In this document: in pieces, positions 30,775 to 39,021 of the stretch
Position numbering within the stretch: the first letter of the stretch is position 1
How the letters are laid out: the number at the start of each line of letters is the position of its first letter
Assembly (NCBI RefSeq): GCF_013122565.1
Contig: NZ_CP053258.1
Source of the DNA: Escherichia coli
GTDB taxonomy: Bacteria > Pseudomonadota > Gammaproteobacteria > Enterobacterales > Enterobacteriaceae
DNA: 64,000 nucleotides
Strand: one strand, 5' to 3'
Translations under genes and position numbers: made by a program
The notes under the pieces: generated by a model
What the model saw: only the letters and a program-made list of their open reading frames with translations
What the model was told of the DNA's origin: nothing
The model's database searches: none

Positions 30775-31884
30775 ATGAACGAACAATCCCAGGCCAAATC
30801 ACCAGAAGCCTTGCGCGCAATGGTCGCCGGGACACTGGCCAATTTTCAGCACCCAACCCTGAAGCATAACCTCACCACGCTGAAAGCGTTGCACCATGTC
30901 GCCTGGATGGACGACACGTTGCATGTGGAACTGGTTATGCCATTCGTCTGGCATAGCGCGTTTGAAGAGTTAAAAGAGCAATGTAGCGCCGAACTGCTGC
31001 GTATCACCGGGGCGAAAGCTATCGACTGGAAACTGTCGCACAATATCGCCACCTTAAAACGCGTGAAGAATCAGCCGGGTATTAATGGCGTGAAGAACAT
31101 CATTGCGGTCAGTTCCGGTAAAGGCGGCGTGGGTAAATCCTCCACGGCGGTAAACCTGGCGCTGGCACTGGCGGCGGAAGGGGCGAAAGTCGGCATTCTG
31201 GACGCCGATATCTACGGCCCATCAATTCCCACCATGCTGGGCGCAGAAAATCAGCGTCCAACTTCGCCGGACGGTACCCATATGGCACCGATTATGTCTC
31301 ATGGCCTGGCAACCAATTCAATTGGTTATCTGGTTACTGACGACAATGCGATGGTGTGGCGTGGACCGATGGCGAGCAAGGCGTTAATGCAGATGTTGCA
31401 GGAAACCTTGTGGCCGGATCTCGACTATCTGGTGCTTGATATGCCGCCAGGCACCGGTGACATTCAGCTGACGCTGGCGCAGAACATTCCGGTGACTGGT
31501 GCGGTAGTGGTCACCACCCCGCAGGACATCGCGCTGATCGATGCGAAAAAAGGCATTGTGATGTTCGAGAAAGTCGAAGTTCCGGTGCTCGGTATTGTCG
31601 AGAACATGAGTGTGCATATTTGCAGTAACTGTGGTCACCATGAACCGATTTTCGGTACCGGTGGTGCAGAGAAACTGGCTGAAAAATACCATACACAGCT
31701 GCTGGGGCAGATGCCGTTACACATCTCCTTACGTGAGGATCTCGATAAAGGCACGCCAACGGTTATCAGCCGTCCGGAGAGCGAATTTACCGCTATCTAC
31801 CGCCAGCTGGCTGACCGCGTTGCAGCTCAGCTCTACTGGCAGGGTGAAGTCATTCCAGGCGAGATTTCCTTCCGCGCGGTCTAA
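30775..31884 (+). CDS. mrp: Fe-S cluster carrier ATPase Mrp/ApbC (369 aa)
   Basis: P-loop GKGGVGKS, CxxC motif; AAGGAG SD before ATG at 30775; divergent from metG as in K-12. Confidence 0.9.
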   Translation: MNEQSQAKSPEALRAMVAGTLANFQHPTLKHNLTTLKALHHVAWMDDTLHVELVMPFVWHSAFEELKEQCSAELLRITGAKAIDWKLSHNIATLKRVKNQPGINGVKNIIAVSSGKGGVGKSSTAVNLALALAAEGAKVGILDADIYGPSIPTMLGAENQRPTSPDGTHMAPIMSHGLATNSIGYLVTDDNAMVWRGPMASKALMQMLQETLWPDLDYLVLDMPPGTGDIQLTLAQNIPVTGAVVVTTPQDIALIDAKKGIVMFEKVEVPVLGIVENMSVHICSNCGHHEPIFGTGGAEKLAEKYHTQLLGQMPLHISLREDLDKGTPTVISRPESEFTAIYRQLADRVAAQLYWQGEVIPGEISFRAV

Positions 31885-31912
31885 CGCCTATTAACCATTC
31901 TGGTTATTCTTC

Positions 31913-31956
31913 ATACACCGCAGAGATGTTACATTGATGCGGTGTATTTGTTTTTG
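31913..31956 (+). terminator. Probable mrp terminator
   Basis: tacaccgc...gcggtgta stem followed by tttgtttttg. Confidence 0.4.
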
Positions 31957-32146
31957 CCGCATTAATGAACACTTATTTAATACTGCGAATATTCTGCGGA
32001 CCTTCGTCCGAAACTCTACAAAGTCGATTGATCATACAGGCAATGCGTCATTATCATCCTTCGTGGCTGTGTAGTGGATGTACAGCTATAGTTTGTTATG
32101 CACTCATTCTATCCAGGCATAACCTTTACTACAGGGATAACGTTCA

Positions 32147-32428
32147 ATGAATAAGTATTGGCTGTCAGGAATTATTTTTCTTGCCTATGGATTGGCTTCT
32201 CCCGCATTCTCTTCAGAGACTGCCACATTAGCGATTAATGGCAGGATCAGTCCCCCAACATGCAGTATGGCTATGGTTAATGGTCAACCTCAACAGCATT
32301 GTGGTCAGTTAACGTATAATGTTGACACCCGTCATCTGTTTTCTTCGCCCGTCAAAGGTGTAACGACAGAAGTGGTTGTTGCAGGTAGCGATAGCAAACG
32401 TCGAATCGTGTTAAATCGCTACGATTAA
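32147..32428 (+). CDS. yehE: Small secreted protein YehE (93 aa)
   Basis: Signal-peptide-like N-terminus; position upstream of yehD as in K-12. Confidence 0.7.
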   Translation: MNKYWLSGIIFLAYGLASPAFSSETATLAINGRISPPTCSMAMVNGQPQQHCGQLTYNVDTRHLFSSPVKGVTTEVVVAGSDSKRRIVLNRYD

Positions 32429-32460
32429 TTTGGCAACCTGATTTTAATTGCATTTAGAAA

Positions 32461-32496
32461 GCCGAAATCATTTATATAAATGATCTCGGCTTTTTT
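32461..32496 (+). terminator. Intrinsic terminator after yehE
   Basis: gccgaaatcattta/taaatgatctcggc hairpin followed by TTTTTT. Confidence 0.45.
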
Positions 32497-32720
32497 ATTG
32501 ATATCAACAATACCATTTACATAAATCTACATTAATTGATAGATGCGATAAATAGTTAATACTCTTAAATATTTGTTGTATTTATATTGCAATGGTTAAT
32601 TTGTTTTAAATCAATAAAACAATATGTTTACATTGCGGCAACTTTTTTGATGTGAGAAATTTGTTTCCAAGAGATACAGACTATTAACAACCAAAAATAA
32701 ATTTTATTAAGGAACATATT

Positions 32721-33263
32721 ATGAAACGTTCAATTATTGCTGCCGCTGTCTTTTCTTCTTTTTTTATGAGCGCTGGAGTATTTGCTGCAGACGTTGATAC
32801 CGGAACATTAACTATTAAGGGGAATATTGCAGAATCTCCGTGTAAATTCGAAGCGGGTGGTGATTCAGTAAGTATTAATATGCCAACTGTACCAACCACT
32901 GTCTTTGAAGGTAAAGCTAAATATTCTACCTATGATGATGCAGTCGGTGTAACCAGTAGCATGTTAAAAATTAGCTGCCCGAAAGAAGTTGCTGGTGTAA
33001 AACTCTCGTTGATTACCAACGATAAAATAACTGGTAACGATAAGGCGATAGCCAGTAGCAACGATACTGTGGGTTACTATCTCTATTTAGGTGATAACAG
33101 CGAAGTCCTGGATGTTTCTGCACCTTTTAACATTGAGAGTTATAAAACAGCGGAAGGTCAATATGCTATTCCGTTTAAAGCAAAATACCTGAAACTGACA
33201 GATAGCTCAGTGAATTCAGGTGATGTGTTATCTTCTCTGGTTATGCGTGTGGCGCAGGATTAA
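32721..33263 (+). CDS. yehD: Fimbrial major subunit YehD
   Basis: Signal peptide, fimbrial-subunit-like sequence; AAGGAA SD; AT-rich upstream region. Confidence 0.85.
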   Translation: MKRSIIAAAVFSSFFMSAGVFAADVDTGTLTIKGNIAESPCKFEAGGDSVSINMPTVPTTVFEGKAKYSTYDDAVGVTSSMLKISCPKEVAGVKLSLITNDKITGNDKAIASSNDTVGYYLYLGDNSEVLDVSAPFNIESYKTAEGQYAIPFKAKYLKLTDSSVNSGDVLSSLVMRVAQD

Positions 33264-33342
33264 TAAATAAAATTGTAAGTTTCTCCAGGTAATAAACATG
33301 GCCGCTATCCCATGGCGGCCTTTTAATTTAAGAGGCATTAAA

Positions 33343-34017
33343 ATGAAAGGATTATTATCTTTACTCATTTTTTCTATGGTCCTTCCTGCACATGCCGGAA
33401 TTGTTATCTACGGGACGCGCATTATTTACCCGGCAGAAAATAAAGAAGTGATGGTGCAGTTGATGAACCAGGGAAACCGTTCTTCGCTGCTGCAGGCGTG
33501 GATTGATGATGGCGATACGTCATTACCACCAGAAAAAATTCAGGTTCCTTTCATGTTAACGCCACCAGTGGCAAAAATAGGGGCAAATTCCGGGCAGCAA
33601 GTAAAAATCAAAATTATGCCGAATAAACTGCCCACTAATAAAGAAAGCATTTTTTATCTGAATGTTCTGGATATTCCACCAAATAGTCCAGAGCAAGAAG
33701 GTAAGAATGCACTGAAGTTTGCGATGCAAAACAGAATTAAGTTGTTTTACCGGCCAGCGGGTATTGCTCCGGTAAATAAAGCGACATTTAAAAAATTGCT
33801 GGTAAATCGCAGTGGCAATGGTTTGGTGATAAAAAATGACTCAGCTAATTGGGTGACGATTTCGGATGTCAAAGCTAATAATGTCAAAGTCAATTATGAA
33901 ACTATTATGATTGCCCCCTTAGAAAGTCAGAGTGTTAATGTCAAAAGTAATAATGCAAATAACTGGTATCTGACCATTATCGATGACCACGGCAACTATA
34001 TTAGTGACAAAATTTAA
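33343..34017 (+). CDS. yehC: Periplasmic fimbrial chaperone YehC
   Basis: Start chosen at MKGLLSLLIFSMVLPAHA with AGAGG SD; the ORF extends to an upstream ATG at 33298, which may be the annotated start. Confidence 0.75.
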   Translation: MKGLLSLLIFSMVLPAHAGIVIYGTRIIYPAENKEVMVQLMNQGNRSSLLQAWIDDGDTSLPPEKIQVPFMLTPPVAKIGANSGQQVKIKIMPNKLPTNKESIFYLNVLDIPPNSPEQEGKNALKFAMQNRIKLFYRPAGIAPVNKATFKKLLVNRSGNGLVIKNDSANWVTISDVKANNVKVNYETIMIAPLESQSVNVKSNNANNWYLTIIDDHGNYISDKI

Positions 34018-34032
34018 TTGCAGGAGCTGCCT

Positions 34033-36513
34033 ATGTTGAGAATGACCCCACTTGCATCAGCAATCGTAGCGTTATTGCTCGGCATTGAAGCTTATGCAGC
34101 TGAAGAAACCTTTGATACCCATTTTATGATAGGTGGAATGAAAGACCAGCAGGTTGCAAATATTCGTCTTGATGATAATCAACCCTTGCCGGGGCAGTAT
34201 GACATCGATATTTATGTCAATAAACAATGGCGCGGGAAATATGAGATCATTGTTAAAGACAACCCGCAAGAAACATGTTTATCAAGGGAAATTATCAAGC
34301 GGTTAGGCATTAACACCGATAACTTCGCCAGTGGAAAGCAATGTTTAACATTTGAGCAACTTGTTCAGGGCGGGAGTTATACCTGGGATATCGGAGTTTT
34401 TCGTCTCGATTTCAGTGTCCCGCAGGCCTGGGTGGAAGAACTGGAAAGTGGCTATGTTCCACCGGAAAACTGGGAGCGGGGTATTAATGCGTTTTATACC
34501 TCTTATTATGTGAGTCAGTATTACAGTGACTATAAAGCGTCGGGTAATAGTAAGAGTACATATGTACGTTTTAACAGCGGGTTAAATTTACTGGGGTGGC
34601 AACTGCATTCTGATGCCAGTTTCAGTAAAACAAATAACAATCCAGGGGTGTGGAAAAGCAATACCCTGTATCTGGAACGTGGATTTGCCCAACTTCTCGG
34701 CACGCTTCGCGTGGGTGATATGTACACATCAAGCGATATTTTTGATTCTGTTCGCTTCAGCGGTGTGCGGTTGTTTCGTGATATGCAGATGTTGCCTAAC
34801 TCGAAACAAAATTTTACGCCACGGGTGCAGGGGATTGCTCAGAGTAACGCGCTGGTAACTATTGAACAGAATGGTTTTGTGGTTTATCAGAAAGAGGTTC
34901 CTCCTGGCCCGTTTGCGATTACAGATTTGCAGTTGGCCGGTGGTGGAGCAGATCTTGATGTCAGCGTGAAAGAGGCGGACGGCTCGGTTACCACCTATCT
35001 GGTGCCTTATGCAGCGGTGCCAAATATGCTGCAACCTGGCGTATCGAAATATGATTTTGCGGCGGGTCGTAGCCATATTGAAGGGGCAAGCAAACAAAGT
35101 GATTTTATCCAGGTGGGTTATCAGTATGGTTTTAATAATTTATTGACGCTGTATGGTGGCTCGATGGTCGCGAATAATTACTACGCGTTCACTTTGGGGA
35201 CTGGCTGGAATACACGCATTGGTGCCATTTCCGTCGATGCCACGAAGTCGCATAGTAAACAAGACAACGGCGATGTGTTTGACGGGCAAAGTTATCAAAT
35301 TGCTTACAACAAATTTGTGAGCCAAACGTCGACACGTTTTGGTCTGGCGGCCTGGCGTTATTCGTCGCGTGATTACCGGACATTTAATGATCACGTTTGG
35401 GCAAACAATAAAGATAATTATCGCCGTGATGAAAACGATATCTATGACATTGCCGATTATTACCAGAACGATTTTGGCCGTAAAAATAGCTTTTCTGCCA
35501 ATATGAGCCAGTCATTGCCAGAAGGCTGGGGTTCTGTGTCGTTAAGTACGTTATGGCGAGATTACTGGGGACGTAGCGGCAGCAGTAAGGATTATCAGTT
35601 GAGTTATTCCAACAACCTGCGACGGATAAGCTATACCCTCTCGGCAAGCCAGGCTTATGACGAGAATCATCATGAAGAGAAACGATTTAATATTTTTATA
35701 TCGATTCCCTTTGATTGGGGTGATGACGTTACGACGCCTCGTCGGCAAATATATATGTCTAACTCAACGACGTTTGATGATCAAGGTTTTGCCTCAAATA
35801 ATACGGGATTATCAGGAACCGTTGGAAGCCGGGATCAGTTTAACTATGGGGTCAACCTGAGTTATCAGCATCAGGGAAATGAAACGACAGCTGGAGCTAA
35901 TTTGACCTGGAATGCGCCGGTTGCGACAGTGAATGGCAGTTATAGTCAGTCGAGTACTTATCGACAGGCTGGAGCCAGGGTTTCAGGGGGCATTGTCGCC
36001 TGGTCGGGTGGCGTTAATCTGGCGAACCGTCTTTCCGAAACGTTTGCTGTGATGAATGCACCTGGCATTAAAGATGCTTATGTCAATGGGCAAAAATATC
36101 GCACAACAAACCGTAATGGAGTGGTGGTATACGACGGAATGACACCTTATCGGGAAAATCACCTGATGCTGGATGTGTCGCAAAGCGATAGCGAAGCAGA
36201 ATTACGTGGCAACCGGAAAATTGCCGCCCCTTATCGCGGCGCGGTTGTACTGGTTAATTTTGATACCGATCAGCGCAAGCCATGGTTTATAAAAGCGTTA
36301 AGAGCAGATGGGCAACCATTAACGTTTGGTTATGAAGTCAATGATATCCATGGTCATAATATTGGCGTTGTCGGCCAGGGAAGTCAGTTATTTATTCGCA
36401 CCAATGAAGTACCGCCATCGGTTAATGTGGCAATTGATAAGCAACAAGGACTTTCATGCACAATCACCTTCGGTAAAGAGATTGATGAAAGTAGAAATTA
36501 TATCTGTCGGTGA
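34033..36513 (+). CDS. yehB: Outer-membrane fimbrial usher YehB (826 aa)
   Basis: CAGGAG SD; large beta-barrel usher-like protein; follows chaperone gene. Confidence 0.9.
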   Translation: MLRMTPLASAIVALLLGIEAYAAEETFDTHFMIGGMKDQQVANIRLDDNQPLPGQYDIDIYVNKQWRGKYEIIVKDNPQETCLSREIIKRLGINTDNFASGKQCLTFEQLVQGGSYTWDIGVFRLDFSVPQAWVEELESGYVPPENWERGINAFYTSYYVSQYYSDYKASGNSKSTYVRFNSGLNLLGWQLHSDASFSKTNNNPGVWKSNTLYLERGFAQLLGTLRVGDMYTSSDIFDSVRFSGVRLFRDMQMLPNSKQNFTPRVQGIAQSNALVTIEQNGFVVYQKEVPPGPFAITDLQLAGGGADLDVSVKEADGSVTTYLVPYAAVPNMLQPGVSKYDFAAGRSHIEGASKQSDFIQVGYQYGFNNLLTLYGGSMVANNYYAFTLGTGWNTRIGAISVDATKSHSKQDNGDVFDGQSYQIAYNKFVSQTSTRFGLAAWRYSSRDYRTFNDHVWANNKDNYRRDENDIYDIADYYQNDFGRKNSFSANMSQSLPEGWGSVSLSTLWRDYWGRSGSSKDYQLSYSNNLRRISYTLSASQAYDENHHEEKRFNIFISIPFDWGDDVTTPRRQIYMSNSTTFDDQGFASNNTGLSGTVGSRDQFNYGVNLSYQHQGNETTAGANLTWNAPVATVNGSYSQSSTYRQAGARVSGGIVAWSGGVNLANRLSETFAVMNAPGIKDAYVNGQKYRTTNRNGVVVYDGMTPYRENHLMLDVSQSDSEAELRGNRKIAAPYRGAVVLVNFDTDQRKPWFIKALRADGQPLTFGYEVNDIHGHNIGVVGQGSQLFIRTNEVPPSVNVAIDKQQGLSCTITFGKEIDESRNYICR

Positions 36514-36523
36514 GAGGTGGAAT

Positions 36524-37558
36524 ATGATGTTCAGAAATGGAATGTTACTAATATTTATTTTATGGGCTAATTTTACCTGGGCTGGATGTCGTACCACTGC
36601 ATCATTAAATATTACTGATAGTATTAATGTGGGGGAGATTTTAGCGAATGAGGTTTCCTTTAGTAAAAATGTCGTGTTTACTGGGATATCTTGTGATACG
36701 AGCACGGATAAAATAGTTTATAAAAATATCCAAAGTGATTGGGTTGAAGTTGGGCCTTTTGGTAATGGCGAAAAATTAAAGGTTAAAATAGATTCTTTAG
36801 GTAAAAACAGTGAGACGATTGGGAAATCCAGCAATGCGCAGGCAGAATTACCCTATGTGGTTAAAATTGCCAGAGGTACACTTGATTTTACTGGAGAAAG
36901 AAAACCAACCTGGTTTCTTTCAGATACTGTGATTGCAAATATTGGCGGTGAGTCATCTACATCTATCGACTTTTGGTTGGGAATTTGTAAGACATTGAAG
37001 ATTAACTGGTGTGTAAGTTATCTCACCAGTAAACTGGCGGGGGATACATTTACGCTTGGGTTAAGTATTTCCTATTATCCTAAAAATACGACCTGTAAGC
37101 CTGAAAACACAATAATAAAAGTAGATGATATTGCCTTGTCCCAGCTCAGAAGTCAGGGAAAGATTACGGCGAACAGTAAGGAAGGAATAATTTCGTTGAA
37201 ATGTGATAATCTTTTCGGCGACAAAAACCAAGCATCGAGGAATATGGTCGTATATCTTTCCAGCAGTGACTTAGTTACAGGAAGCAATACAATTTTGCGT
37301 GGCAACATAGATAATGGTGTAGGATTTGTGTTGGATCTAAAAGAACCACCAAAAGGAACTGAAGCTGCCATCAAAATTTCTGCTAGCGGCAATCAGGGCG
37401 CGGCGACATCATTATGGAAAACAGATAAACCAGGGGCTTCTTTAAATAGCAATATTATTAATATACCAGTTATGGCCAGTTACTACGTCTACGATACAAA
37501 CAAAGTTAAATCTGGCGCACTGGAGGCAACCGCATTAATCAACGTGAAATACGACTAA
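36524..37558 (+). CDS. yehA: Fimbrial adhesin-like protein YehA (344 aa)
   Basis: ORF 36326..37558 trimmed to MMFRNGMLLIFILWANFTWA start with GAGGTGG SD right after the yehB stop. Confidence 0.8.
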   Translation: MMFRNGMLLIFILWANFTWAGCRTTASLNITDSINVGEILANEVSFSKNVVFTGISCDTSTDKIVYKNIQSDWVEVGPFGNGEKLKVKIDSLGKNSETIGKSSNAQAELPYVVKIARGTLDFTGERKPTWFLSDTVIANIGGESSTSIDFWLGICKTLKINWCVSYLTSKLAGDTFTLGLSISYYPKNTTCKPENTIIKVDDIALSQLRSQGKITANSKEGIISLKCDNLFGDKNQASRNMVVYLSSSDLVTGSNTILRGNIDNGVGFVLDLKEPPKGTEAAIKISASGNQGAATSLWKTDKPGASLNSNIINIPVMASYYVYDTNKVKSGALEATALINVKYD

Positions 37559-37614
37559 TAACAAGCAAGACGAGCAAGTGGCTAATAATAAAAAATAACA
37601 AGGTGTCTGCATTT

Positions 37615-37641
37615 CCCCCTCATGATGAGGGGGCTTTTTTT
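37615..37641 (+). terminator. Intrinsic terminator after yehA
   Basis: ccccctcatgatgaggggg hairpin followed by cttttttt. Confidence 0.55.
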
Positions 37642-37978
37642 AGCGATGATAAAAAATCTCACCGTCGTAGGCTTTAATGATTTTACCGTCGGTGTCGCTG
37701 ATCAACACGTACGCGCCACCCATATAGGTCCAGTGCGTCCCGGCATCAGGCGCGGGCAGGTTACGTAACTGCCACTGCTTAATGTTGTACTCATCGGTGC
37801 GGTACATCTCTGGGACGGTATCGCCTGGTTTGAAATGCTTAAAGTCAGCAATGAAACTGCTTAACTCATACTTGGAAATTCCCGAGGTATTGGTCGAACC
37901 CGCGGTGGCTGGTGCGGCCCAGGCGGCACTGGTAACCAGCAAAAGCGCACCCAGCAACATCTTATTTTTAATGGTCAT
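37640..37978 (-). CDS. rcnB: Periplasmic Ni/Co homeostasis protein RcnB/YohN (112 aa)
   Basis: ORF 37640..38158 trimmed to MTIKNKMLLGALLLVTSAAWA signal peptide with GGAGAG SD. Confidence 0.8.
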   Translation of the reverse strand: MTIKNKMLLGALLLVTSAAWAAPATAGSTNTSGISKYELSSFIADFKHFKPGDTVPEMYRTDEYNIKQWQLRNLPAPDAGTHWTYMGGAYVLISDTDGKIIKAYDGEIFYHR

Positions 37979-38196
37979 AAACTCTCCACTTTGGGGATCT
38001 GTAATATCAGTCGCATATCTTTCCTGCCATACAATATAACTGACAAGCGATATTTTGTTAGTGATCCCATGATTTCGTAAAAAGTGTAAATGAAAGGATG
38101 CCCTAAAAGCATCCTTAGCGAGCAGAGAGTCAGCGGAAATAGCTGATTTAAGAATCATCCTGGGCTGAAGATAACATGCAAGCCTAAAGGATTGAG

Positions 38197-39021
38197 TTAT
38201 CGCATTATGCCCATGAAGCCATGTACGCCCATATACACACCAACTAAGCCAATCAACAGACTGGAAAAATAGGGGGCGCGTTTAGCGAGAGTGTTAAATC
38301 CGCTCCAGCGTTTTGCGACCTGCTGAACGCTGATTGCTGCGCCAACGCCTACGGTGACAAGCGTTAACGCCAGGCCAATGCTAAAACTTACGACCAGTGT
38401 TGCGCCCAGTGTCAGGGCTTTCAACTGAATGCAAATCAACAGCACGGTAATTGCTGCCGGGCAGGGGATAAGGCCACCGGTTAAGCCAAATAACAAAATT
38501 TGCCAGTTGGTGACCTCTCTACCATCAAAGCGTCGTTTAATGTCATTAGCATGGGCTCGTGCATGAGCATCCTGATACTCGCCATGTTCGTGATGGTGAT
38601 GATGCCCATGGTCGTGGTGATCTTCGTGATCGTGGTGATGATGTTCATGATCATGCTCGTGCATATTCTCCAGCCAGTTGCGTTCGCCGCGCCAGGTACG
38701 CCAGAACATCCAGAACGCGGTGCCAATAATGATCACTGCAGAAATCAACTGGAGCCACGGTTCTGCAGATTGAGCAGTAAAGCGTTTGCTGATCACCATC
38801 CCGCCAAAGGCAATCAACCAGACCACCGCGGTATGCGAAATGGTTGCTGCCAGTCCGAGCATCACCGCCTGTTTAATGGTGCCTTTGATGGCGATGATAA
38901 ACGCCGCCATCATCGTTTTTGAGTGCCCTGGTTCCAGGCCATGAAGCGCACCAAGTAAGATGGCGCTGGGGATGAAGAACCAGGCGTTTCCTTGCTGAAG
39001 AAGAGTTGTAAATTCGGTCAT
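38197..39021 (-). CDS. rcnA: Nickel/cobalt efflux protein RcnA
   Basis: Membrane protein with very His-rich loop (HEHDHEHHHHDHEDHHDHGHHHHHEH). Confidence 0.9.
   Translation of the reverse strand: MTEFTTLLQQGNAWFFIPSAILLGALHGLEPGHSKTMMAAFIIAIKGTIKQAVMLGLAATISHTAVVWLIAFGGMVISKRFTAQSAEPWLQLISAVIIIGTAFWMFWRTWRGERNWLENMHEHDHEHHHHDHEDHHDHGHHHHHEHGEYQDAHARAHANDIKRRFDGREVTNWQILLFGLTGGLIPCPAAITVLLICIQLKALTLGATLVVSFSIGLALTLVTVGVGAAISVQQVAKRWSGFNTLAKRAPYFSSLLIGLVGVYMGVHGFMGIMR

Follow-up and report, generated by a model that had tools for sequence, protein, structure and literature searches.

A 64,000-nucleotide (nt) stretch of Escherichia coli DNA (contig NZ_CP053258.1, one strand, mean GC content 0.49), called the window hereafter, carries the E. 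coli Yeh pilus cluster, a chaperone-usher cluster of the γ4, Stc-like type. An earlier note, made from the sequence of the window alone, had recognized yehDCBA as a chaperone-usher operon, and the Pfam domains, the RefSeq annotation of yehE, yehD, yehC, yehB and yehA, and the identity to K-12 all agree with it. Positions 32100–33500 are 99.1% identical to K-12, although the yehB-yehA spacer differs by 5 nt (the strain is not K-12 itself) and the orientation of the locus is opposite to that of the K-12 map. The genes of the cluster and the features of the junction between the pilin and chaperone genes are as follows.

32147..32428, + strand: yehE, 93 amino acids (aa), secreted, Pfam DUF2574 (E = 1.6e-52), RefSeq 'YehE family protein'
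32721..33263, + strand: yehD, major pilin, 180 aa, Pfam Fimbrial PF00419 (E = 3.7e-7), annotated in RefSeq
33300..33320, + strand: intercistronic hairpin after the pilin gene, 9-bp stem and 3-nt loop
33321..33329, + strand: U-rich tail, TTTTAATTT, which renders the hairpin of the K-12-type allele terminator-like
33330..33335, + strand: yehC Shine-Dalgarno (SD) sequence, AAGAGG, 7 nt before the ATG at 33343, invariant in all aligned Escherichia
33343..34017, + strand: yehC, periplasmic chaperone, 224 aa, PapD_N and PapD_C (PF00345, PF02753)
34033..36513, + strand: yehB, outer-membrane usher, 826 aa, PapC_N, Usher and PapC_C (PF13954, PF00577, PF13953), annotated in RefSeq
36524..37558, + strand: yehA, two-domain tip adhesin, 344 aa, with a C-terminal Pfam Fimbrial domain at residues 185–343

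The stem-loop after the pilin gene

A GC-rich hairpin between yehD and yehC, noted earlier from the sequence, is present at 33300–33320, and it is both conserved and covarying. Its arms, GGCCGCTAT (33300–33308) and ATGGCGGCC (33312–33320), enclose the loop CCC and form six G-C, one U.G and two A-U pairs, with a minimum free energy (MFE) of −15.3 kcal/mol; the probability of a perfect hairpin in this spacer is p = 0.015 for this sequence. The stem is followed by UUUUAAUUU, with six T in eight positions. We found no mention of a yehD-yehC hairpin or terminator in the literature searched.

We compared 80 loci that encode relatives of YehC. The 45 closest of these, with chaperones 38–100% identical to that of the window, include loci from Salmonella, Citrobacter, Superficieibacter, Klebsiella, Serratia, Pluralibacter and others. 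Far from the hairpin being absent in orthologous loci, 41 of these 45 have a perfect one of −12 to −23 kcal/mol in the same spacer between pilin and chaperone genes, and each of them stands out from dinucleotide shuffles at p ≤ 0.05. The hairpins are unrelated in sequence among loci (for example, ACCGGCAGTA/TACTGCCGGT and GTCGGCGGC/GCCGCCGAT), the hairpin is the MFE structure in every allele folded, and about half of the much more distant clusters (Acinetobacter, Burkholderia, Cupriavidus, Luteibacter) carry one too. Its 3′ end is a median of 23 nt from the chaperone ATG (interquartile range 21–25, with the starts of partial matches extrapolated), and between 2 and 44 nt, depending on the locus, separate the hairpin from the pilin stop codon.

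Among E. coli alleles the stem is invariant (100%), with flanks that are 60–70% identical. An alignment of 11 Escherichia sequences has 95.9% of cells paired and three pairs with compensatory changes: a G-C to A-U exchange in E. whittamii and E. albertii, another in Escherichia sp. MOD1, and one at an outer pair; the U.G pair is replaced by C-G in the O157-type group. On four of five measures of pairing and covariation only 0–2 of 500 shuffles reach the observed values, and the fifth, the count of further pair types, is not above shuffles (415/500). Sliding the partner columns of this alignment destroys the pairing. We take the hairpin to be real because it is conserved and covarying, and not on the statistics of the single sequence.

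The earlier note had also seen in this spacer an ambiguity between two yehC start codons, at 33298 and 33343, which proves not to be real. The two ATGs are in frame in the window, but the upstream one lies inside the 5′ arm of the hairpin and has no SD sequence. From 33343, by comparison, the protein begins with a classical 18-residue signal peptide, MKGLLSLLIFSMVLPAHA, with PapD_N directly after it, and the NCBI annotation pipeline PGAP places the start at the equivalent of 33343 in each of the six genomes that were inspected. Where the loop has gained one nucleotide (CCCC or CTCC in place of CCC), the upstream ATG is shifted out of frame and runs into TAA after nine codons. Of the seven E. 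coli alleles in the first alignment, five carry this 1-nt insertion, as do, judged by alignment lengths, 34 of 59 genomes (~58%) sampled evenly from 4886. Since most strains tolerate a frameshifting indel here, the stretch from 33298 to 33343 is not coding, and the sequence comparison supports 33343 as the predicted start of yehC. The N-terminal proteomics that had been suggested for fixing the start cannot separate the two candidates, because cleavage of the signal peptide gives the same mature protein from either.

Possible roles of the stem-loop

The explanation that we consider probable for the locus as a whole is that of an H-NS-silenced γ4 cluster in which yehE has its own terminator and the hairpin after the pilin gene serves as both a terminator and a 3′ protective structure. 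The hairpin would act as conserved 'punctuation' that follows the pilin gene only. A leaky intrinsic terminator at this point would end a fraction of the transcripts after yehD, and the 3′ stem-loop would shield the yehD message from 3′-to-5′ exonucleases; both actions would raise pilin mRNA over the mRNAs for chaperone, usher and adhesin, in keeping with the many pilins required for each usher and adhesin. Termination, stabilisation and the effect on stoichiometry are what we infer from these comparisons. Only the yehD-yehC junction has room for such a device (79 nt, as against 15 nt for yehC-yehB and 10 nt for yehB-yehA), which fits an element that sets the pilin apart from the assembly genes. 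If it terminates, it must be leaky, because all of the operon genes share one induction pattern under SlyA over-production (PMC5797941, footnote) and functional fimbriae are obtained when a constitutive promoter is set upstream (Korea et al. 2010, as cited in PMC5797941).

The design is a known one. In the pap operon a stem-loop stands in the same position, directly after the major pilin gene papA and ahead of the assembly genes, and its proposed role—a pilin mRNA that exceeds the downstream message in abundance and stability—is the one proposed here for yeh; Baga et al. 1988 (as cited in PMC5927463) described differential decay of the mRNA and a terminator hairpin at the papA 3′ end. The pap system differs in having an upstream regulator gene, papB, a mapped RNase E site and measured half-lives, and, unlike the pap terminator hairpin, that of many yeh alleles has no U-tract. 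The yeh hairpin is thus a well-supported new example of a known pilus-operon design.

Several observations weigh against this explanation or parts of it. Folding of the hairpin in this one sequence is marginal (z = −1.9, with 10 of 200 shuffles as good), and the inner three pairs that close the 3-nt loop (U.G, A-U and U-A) are weak. In the O157-type alleles, E. whittamii and E. albertii the tail is replaced by AGCATAAATAT (also written AGCAUAAAUAU; AGCATAAAT in the O157-type), and only ~14 of the 41 related hairpins have at least five T in the next 8 nt; with the U-tract lacking in the O157-type alleles and in most related loci, termination is not a universally conserved function. The fixed spacing to the chaperone gene might reflect an action of the hairpin at the 5′ end of the message downstream, although it could also come from simple compaction of hairpin, tail and SD sequence. 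Lastly, the accessible part of the supplementary tables of the E. coli 3′-end atlas (PMC7815308) has no entry for yehD, yehC or yehE, as expected for a silent operon.

The marginal folding statistic raises the question of a chance palindrome without function, as does a scan of the region for terminator patterns, which gives no more sites (4) than expected from shuffles (5.3). To this we assign next to no probability: a hairpin in the same position in nearly all of the close loci, with differing sequences, compensatory substitutions and a stem that stays constant between alleles whose flanks diverge, effectively refutes it. The absence of the U-tract bears on a more serious alternative, that the hairpin is purely an element of stability or processing. 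RNase E would cut the AU-rich spacer and the hairpin would block 3′ exonucleases, such that the yehD fragment outlives the remainder of the message; in a variant, cleavage upstream of the hairpin would leave it protecting the 5′ end of the yehCBA fragment. The conservation of the stem and not of the U-tract favours this alternative, as do the AU-rich single-stranded flanks of both allele types, the narrow spacing to the chaperone ATG beside the variable distance to the pilin stop codon, and the same logic in papBA and other operons (PMC5927463). Against it, the hairpin and UUUU-AA-UUU tail of the present allele have the sequence features usually asked of an intrinsic terminator, and we regard a role in stability to the exclusion of termination as rather unlikely.

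The spacer is also reminiscent of that between fimA and fimI, likewise a structured spacer that follows the gene for the major subunit in a chaperone-usher operon of E. coli, in which a short single strand precedes a stem-loop (PMC9723502). There an RNase E-generated 35-nt RNA with known targets, FimR2, has been detected, and the yehD 3′ untranslated region with its hairpin might similarly be released as a small regulatory RNA, the Escherichia alleles having an AU-rich stretch of 36–44 nt between stop codon and hairpin. That stretch is, however, poorly conserved between K-12-type and O157-type alleles and is only 2–16 nt long in other genera, so no conserved single-stranded seed is visible; the loop lacks the GGA motif expected for CsrA binding, Rfam offers no match, and such an RNA is not reported from this operon, which is silent in laboratory conditions. 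We think such an RNA improbable. Control of yehC translation, in which the hairpin would hide the start at 33298 or modulate access to the yehC ribosome-binding site, we consider very improbable. The position of that ATG within the stem, the constant ~10 nt between hairpin and SD sequence, and a longer fold pairing GUUUCU with AGAGGC, SD sequence included, are in its favour, but the ATG has no SD sequence and is out of frame in most sampled alleles, as noted above, and the SD sequence lies outside the conserved stem. The longer fold, taken separately as a device for hiding the SD sequence, was rejected, being weak and not conserved in the alleles of sequence type 131 (ST131) and of avian pathogenic E. 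coli (APEC), which have GATTCTT.

What remains preferred is a hairpin that acts by termination together with 3′ protection, and the two actions are not equally conserved. In the present allele, the hairpin and its U-rich tail make a plausible intrinsic terminator as judged from sequence. Evolution has not kept the U-tract, and the conserved role is therefore more likely to be that of a stem-loop that stops 3′ exonucleases, to which some lineages have added termination. The earlier suggestion that the hairpin attenuates read-through accordingly stands in part: a hairpin with a U-tract is there in this allele, but the U-tract is not conserved, which leaves attenuation as one of two likely mechanisms.

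The AT-rich region between yehE and yehD

The region upstream of yehD had been described earlier as ~290 bp of markedly AT-rich DNA typical of H-NS-silenced cryptic fimbrial operons. We find it to be composite, with the following parts.

32429..32720, no strand assigned: yehE-yehD intergenic region, 292 nt, 24.3% GC, matching a published H-NS-bound 'promoter island'
32458..32496, + strand: yehE intrinsic terminator, AAAGCCGA-A-ATCATTT / AAATGAT-C-TCGGCTTT, then a T6 run
~32497–32570: variable DNA, the middle part of the composite AT-rich region
32571..32720, + strand: putative conserved cis-regulatory block and 5′ leader, from an alignment of 27 loci
32601..32622, no strand assigned: perfect 8-6-8 palindrome, TTGTTTTA-AATCAA-TAAAACAA, a candidate protein-binding site

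The AT-richness is borne out. This is the most AT-rich 292-nt stretch of the window: only 0.05% of 292-nt windows are equally low in GC, all of them overlapping 32429–32720, and its GC content of 0.243 compares with 0.42 for the operon and with the mean of 0.49 for the window. The silencing fits published H-NS binding and repression (PMC5797941, PMC3661553): yehDCBA is listed as cryptic, bound by H-NS in two chromatin immunoprecipitation (ChIP) data sets and induced 3.6-fold by SlyA (PMC5797941, Table 2), repression of yeh by H-NS was found by Korea et al. 2010 (as cited in PMC5797941), a promoter island is recorded as yehD(-)/yehE(-) (PMC3661553), and a static protein-occupancy domain covers yehEDCBA (bioRxiv 2024.06.20.599902). 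The yeh operon and its silencing by H-NS are thus already known. Low et al. 2006 (as cited in PMC7098969) report that a promoter fusion in O157 works in static culture and is more active at 28 °C, and 'cryptic' therefore means condition-dependent. Matches to the H-NS motif TCGATAAATT with up to two mismatches number three in the 292 bp, as such AT-rich DNA yields anyway, and were not used as evidence.

In these respects yeh resembles the F9/ydeQRST, ycb/elf, sfm and yad operons, which have AT-rich promoter regions (Korea et al. 2010; PMC3966885), are poorly expressed at 37 °C in laboratory media and are de-repressed by SlyA or when H-NS is missing. In F9, both the start of transcription and direct binding of H-NS have been mapped, whereas the data for yeh are genome-wide ChIP and array data only. 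Unlike the other H-NS-silenced cryptic operons, yeh has an upstream region whose proximal 150 bp are unusually conserved in sequence. With this block and ~70 bp that are the terminator of yehE, the earlier description holds for base composition and not for the idea of a generic AT-rich region.

The yehE terminator folds with an MFE of −19.8 kcal/mol (z = −6.2), and none of 200 shuffles folds equally well; over six E. coli alleles 98.9% of cells are paired, with three pairs showing compensatory changes. The gene that it follows is a syntenic fifth member of the cluster, left out by the earlier note: ~30 related loci from different genera have a yehE homologue immediately before the pilin gene, and yehE was cloned within the Yeh cluster ECs2914-2918 of strain Sakai (PMC7098969). 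Members of the YehE family keep a signal peptide, two cysteines, a pilin-like N-terminal motif (DTATLTI.GR...PTC) and a C-terminal RQIVLNRYD, and YehE thus has pilin-like motifs at both ends at half the size of a pilin. DUF2574 has a weak Pfam match on the N-terminus of YehD; a BLASTP comparison of YehE with YehD is not significant, and the AlphaFold model of YehE is all-beta at low confidence (mean predicted local distance difference test, pLDDT, 64). In E. coli NMBU-W10C18 the element IS200C is found directly after the T-tract of the yehE terminator (locus L003 of the comparison, 1330–2338; window ~32497), with the conserved block intact.

The block itself comprises ATTTGTTG..TATATTGC, TTTACATTGCGGCAAC (32627–32642), TGTGAGAAAT, AAGAG-N-CTNTTAAC and the SD sequence AAGGA. 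Its identity to the window is 75% in 21 loci other than Escherichia yeh (those of paralogous clusters or of other genera), as compared with 58% for the pilin coding sequence, 62% for the chaperone coding sequence and 58% for the next 150 nt upstream. The K-12 and O157 alleles, ~80% identical otherwise, are 93–97% identical in the block, and a 97-nt core of it is matched at 90% identity or better by 5315 of 5328 E. coli records. The palindrome is nearly invariant across genera, as is TTTACATTGCGG(C/T)AAC at 32627–32642; TTTACATTGCGGCAAC recurs exactly in two Citrobacter loci and has what we take, presumptively, to be a resemblance to OmpR/CpxR-type half-sites. An RNA hairpin at the palindrome, or a structured 5′ leader, was considered and rejected: the leader has z = −0.99, and changes in the left arm of the palindrome are uncompensated in the right arm. 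With no RNA-structure signal in the leader and no covariation of the arms, recognition of the palindrome and block by a protein at the DNA level is the likelier prospect. A promoter scan returned only a weak site at 32536–32563, where the sequence is not conserved, and its total of sites was below that of shuffles; conserved promoter candidates, picked out by eye only, are TTGTTG-N17/18-TAAnTT and TTTACA.

Tentatively, and with something short of even confidence, we read 32571–32720 as a sequence-specific regulatory module of Yeh/Stc-type clusters in Escherichia, Salmonella, Citrobacter, Superficieibacter and Klebsiella, always beside a yehE-like gene. This deeply conserved control block adjoining yehE is the most interesting by-product of the analysis. 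Part of the block is also matched, at ~85% identity, in 14 plasmid places in E. coli assemblies, which suggests plasmid-borne relatives of the Yeh pilus family.

Distribution, relatives and significance

The cluster is flanked by metG (− strand) and apbC (+ strand) upstream of yehE, and by rcnB and rcnA (− strand) beyond yehA; the order is metG, apbC, yehE, yehD, yehC, yehB, yehA, rcnB and rcnA, with all five yeh genes on the + strand. Among complete E. coli genomes the yeh locus is almost universal (5413 of 5426). The yehB-yehA spacer (36514–36523) is 10 nt in the window and 15 nt in K-12. One further feature lies at the end of the operon.

37615..37641, + strand: terminator-like hairpin, CCCCCTCA-TGA-TGAGGGGG then T7, from a pattern scan and folding of this sequence

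The convergent gene rcnB has its stop codon right next to this hairpin. On the opposite strand, at 37596–37641, Rfam gives a match to Hrs1 that is below threshold (E = 0.32); a permissive Rfam scan of 31800–38300 returned only this match, at 23.6 bits as against a gathering score of 56.4, and no known RNA family.

The N-terminal part of YehA (residues 20–190, 171 aa) matches a solved 176-aa chain, PDB 8v9v_A (E = 2e-101), and the protein is 90% identical to its O157 homologue. An apparent 'unalignable' N-terminal half in the K-12 and O157 adhesins was rejected as a register artefact of MAFFT, given that identity. In APEC IMT5155 yehD is annotated as a frameshifted pseudogene (L006, 1622–2165), and in S. 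flexneri 2457T yehC and yehA are reported to be pseudogenes (PMC6854044).

Yeh has been placed in the γ4 clade beside Salmonella Stc and described as a pilus with a minimal set of four genes and a pectin-binding adhesin (PMC12778044; clade also in PMC7098969), and the nearest relatives that we found are Salmonella and Citrobacter loci. Salmonella stcABCD and the E. coli Yeh and Yhl clusters share one architecture of pilin, chaperone, usher and adhesin (PMC12778044, PMC7098969, PMC5565968), and the relatives examined here share a yehE-like upstream gene, the conserved leader block and the post-pilin hairpin. The Stc and Yhl proteins are only 55–70% identical to those of Yeh. Gene names, moreover, are reversed in the Salmonella papers and in those on uropathogenic E. 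coli (UPEC), including those of the Hultgren laboratory, in which YehA is the pilin and YehD the adhesin (PMC12778044); the K-12 names are yehD for the pilin and yehA for the adhesin, and the opposite naming is an easy source of error when data are compared. An interpretation of the O157 allele as 'Yhl' was rejected, in that Sakai 'Yeh' is ECs2914-2918 at the same locus and 'yeh-like' is a separate cluster (PMC7098969).

Two paralogous Yeh-type clusters per genome are found in E. whittamii (L009 and L027) and Escherichia sp. E1V33 (L010 and L029), with chaperones 86–88% and 55–56% identical to that of the window. The second paralogous cluster may be of the 'yeh-like' (Yhl) type. L027 shares much of the conserved upstream block, and a yehE homologue was not found there; in L029 the pilin start is not assignable and the upstream region falls outside the comparison. 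If the block is common to the paralogous clusters, a shared trans-acting factor is possible.

Nearly all E. coli encode Yeh pili, which recent work connects with the binding of pectin and with colonisation of the gut (PMC12778044). The parts list of the cluster is clarified here, with yehE and its own terminator, a conserved control block and a post-pilin hairpin, and the start of the chaperone gene is fixed. Natural pairs of alleles—K-12-type with a U-tract and O157-type without—would let termination be separated from RNA stabilisation. Should the module reading of the control block be true, these 'cryptic' pili would be turned on by a dedicated factor, which could be sought directly by means of the module. 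Current understanding is not overturned by these results, which extend the textbook design of pilus operons to one more family.

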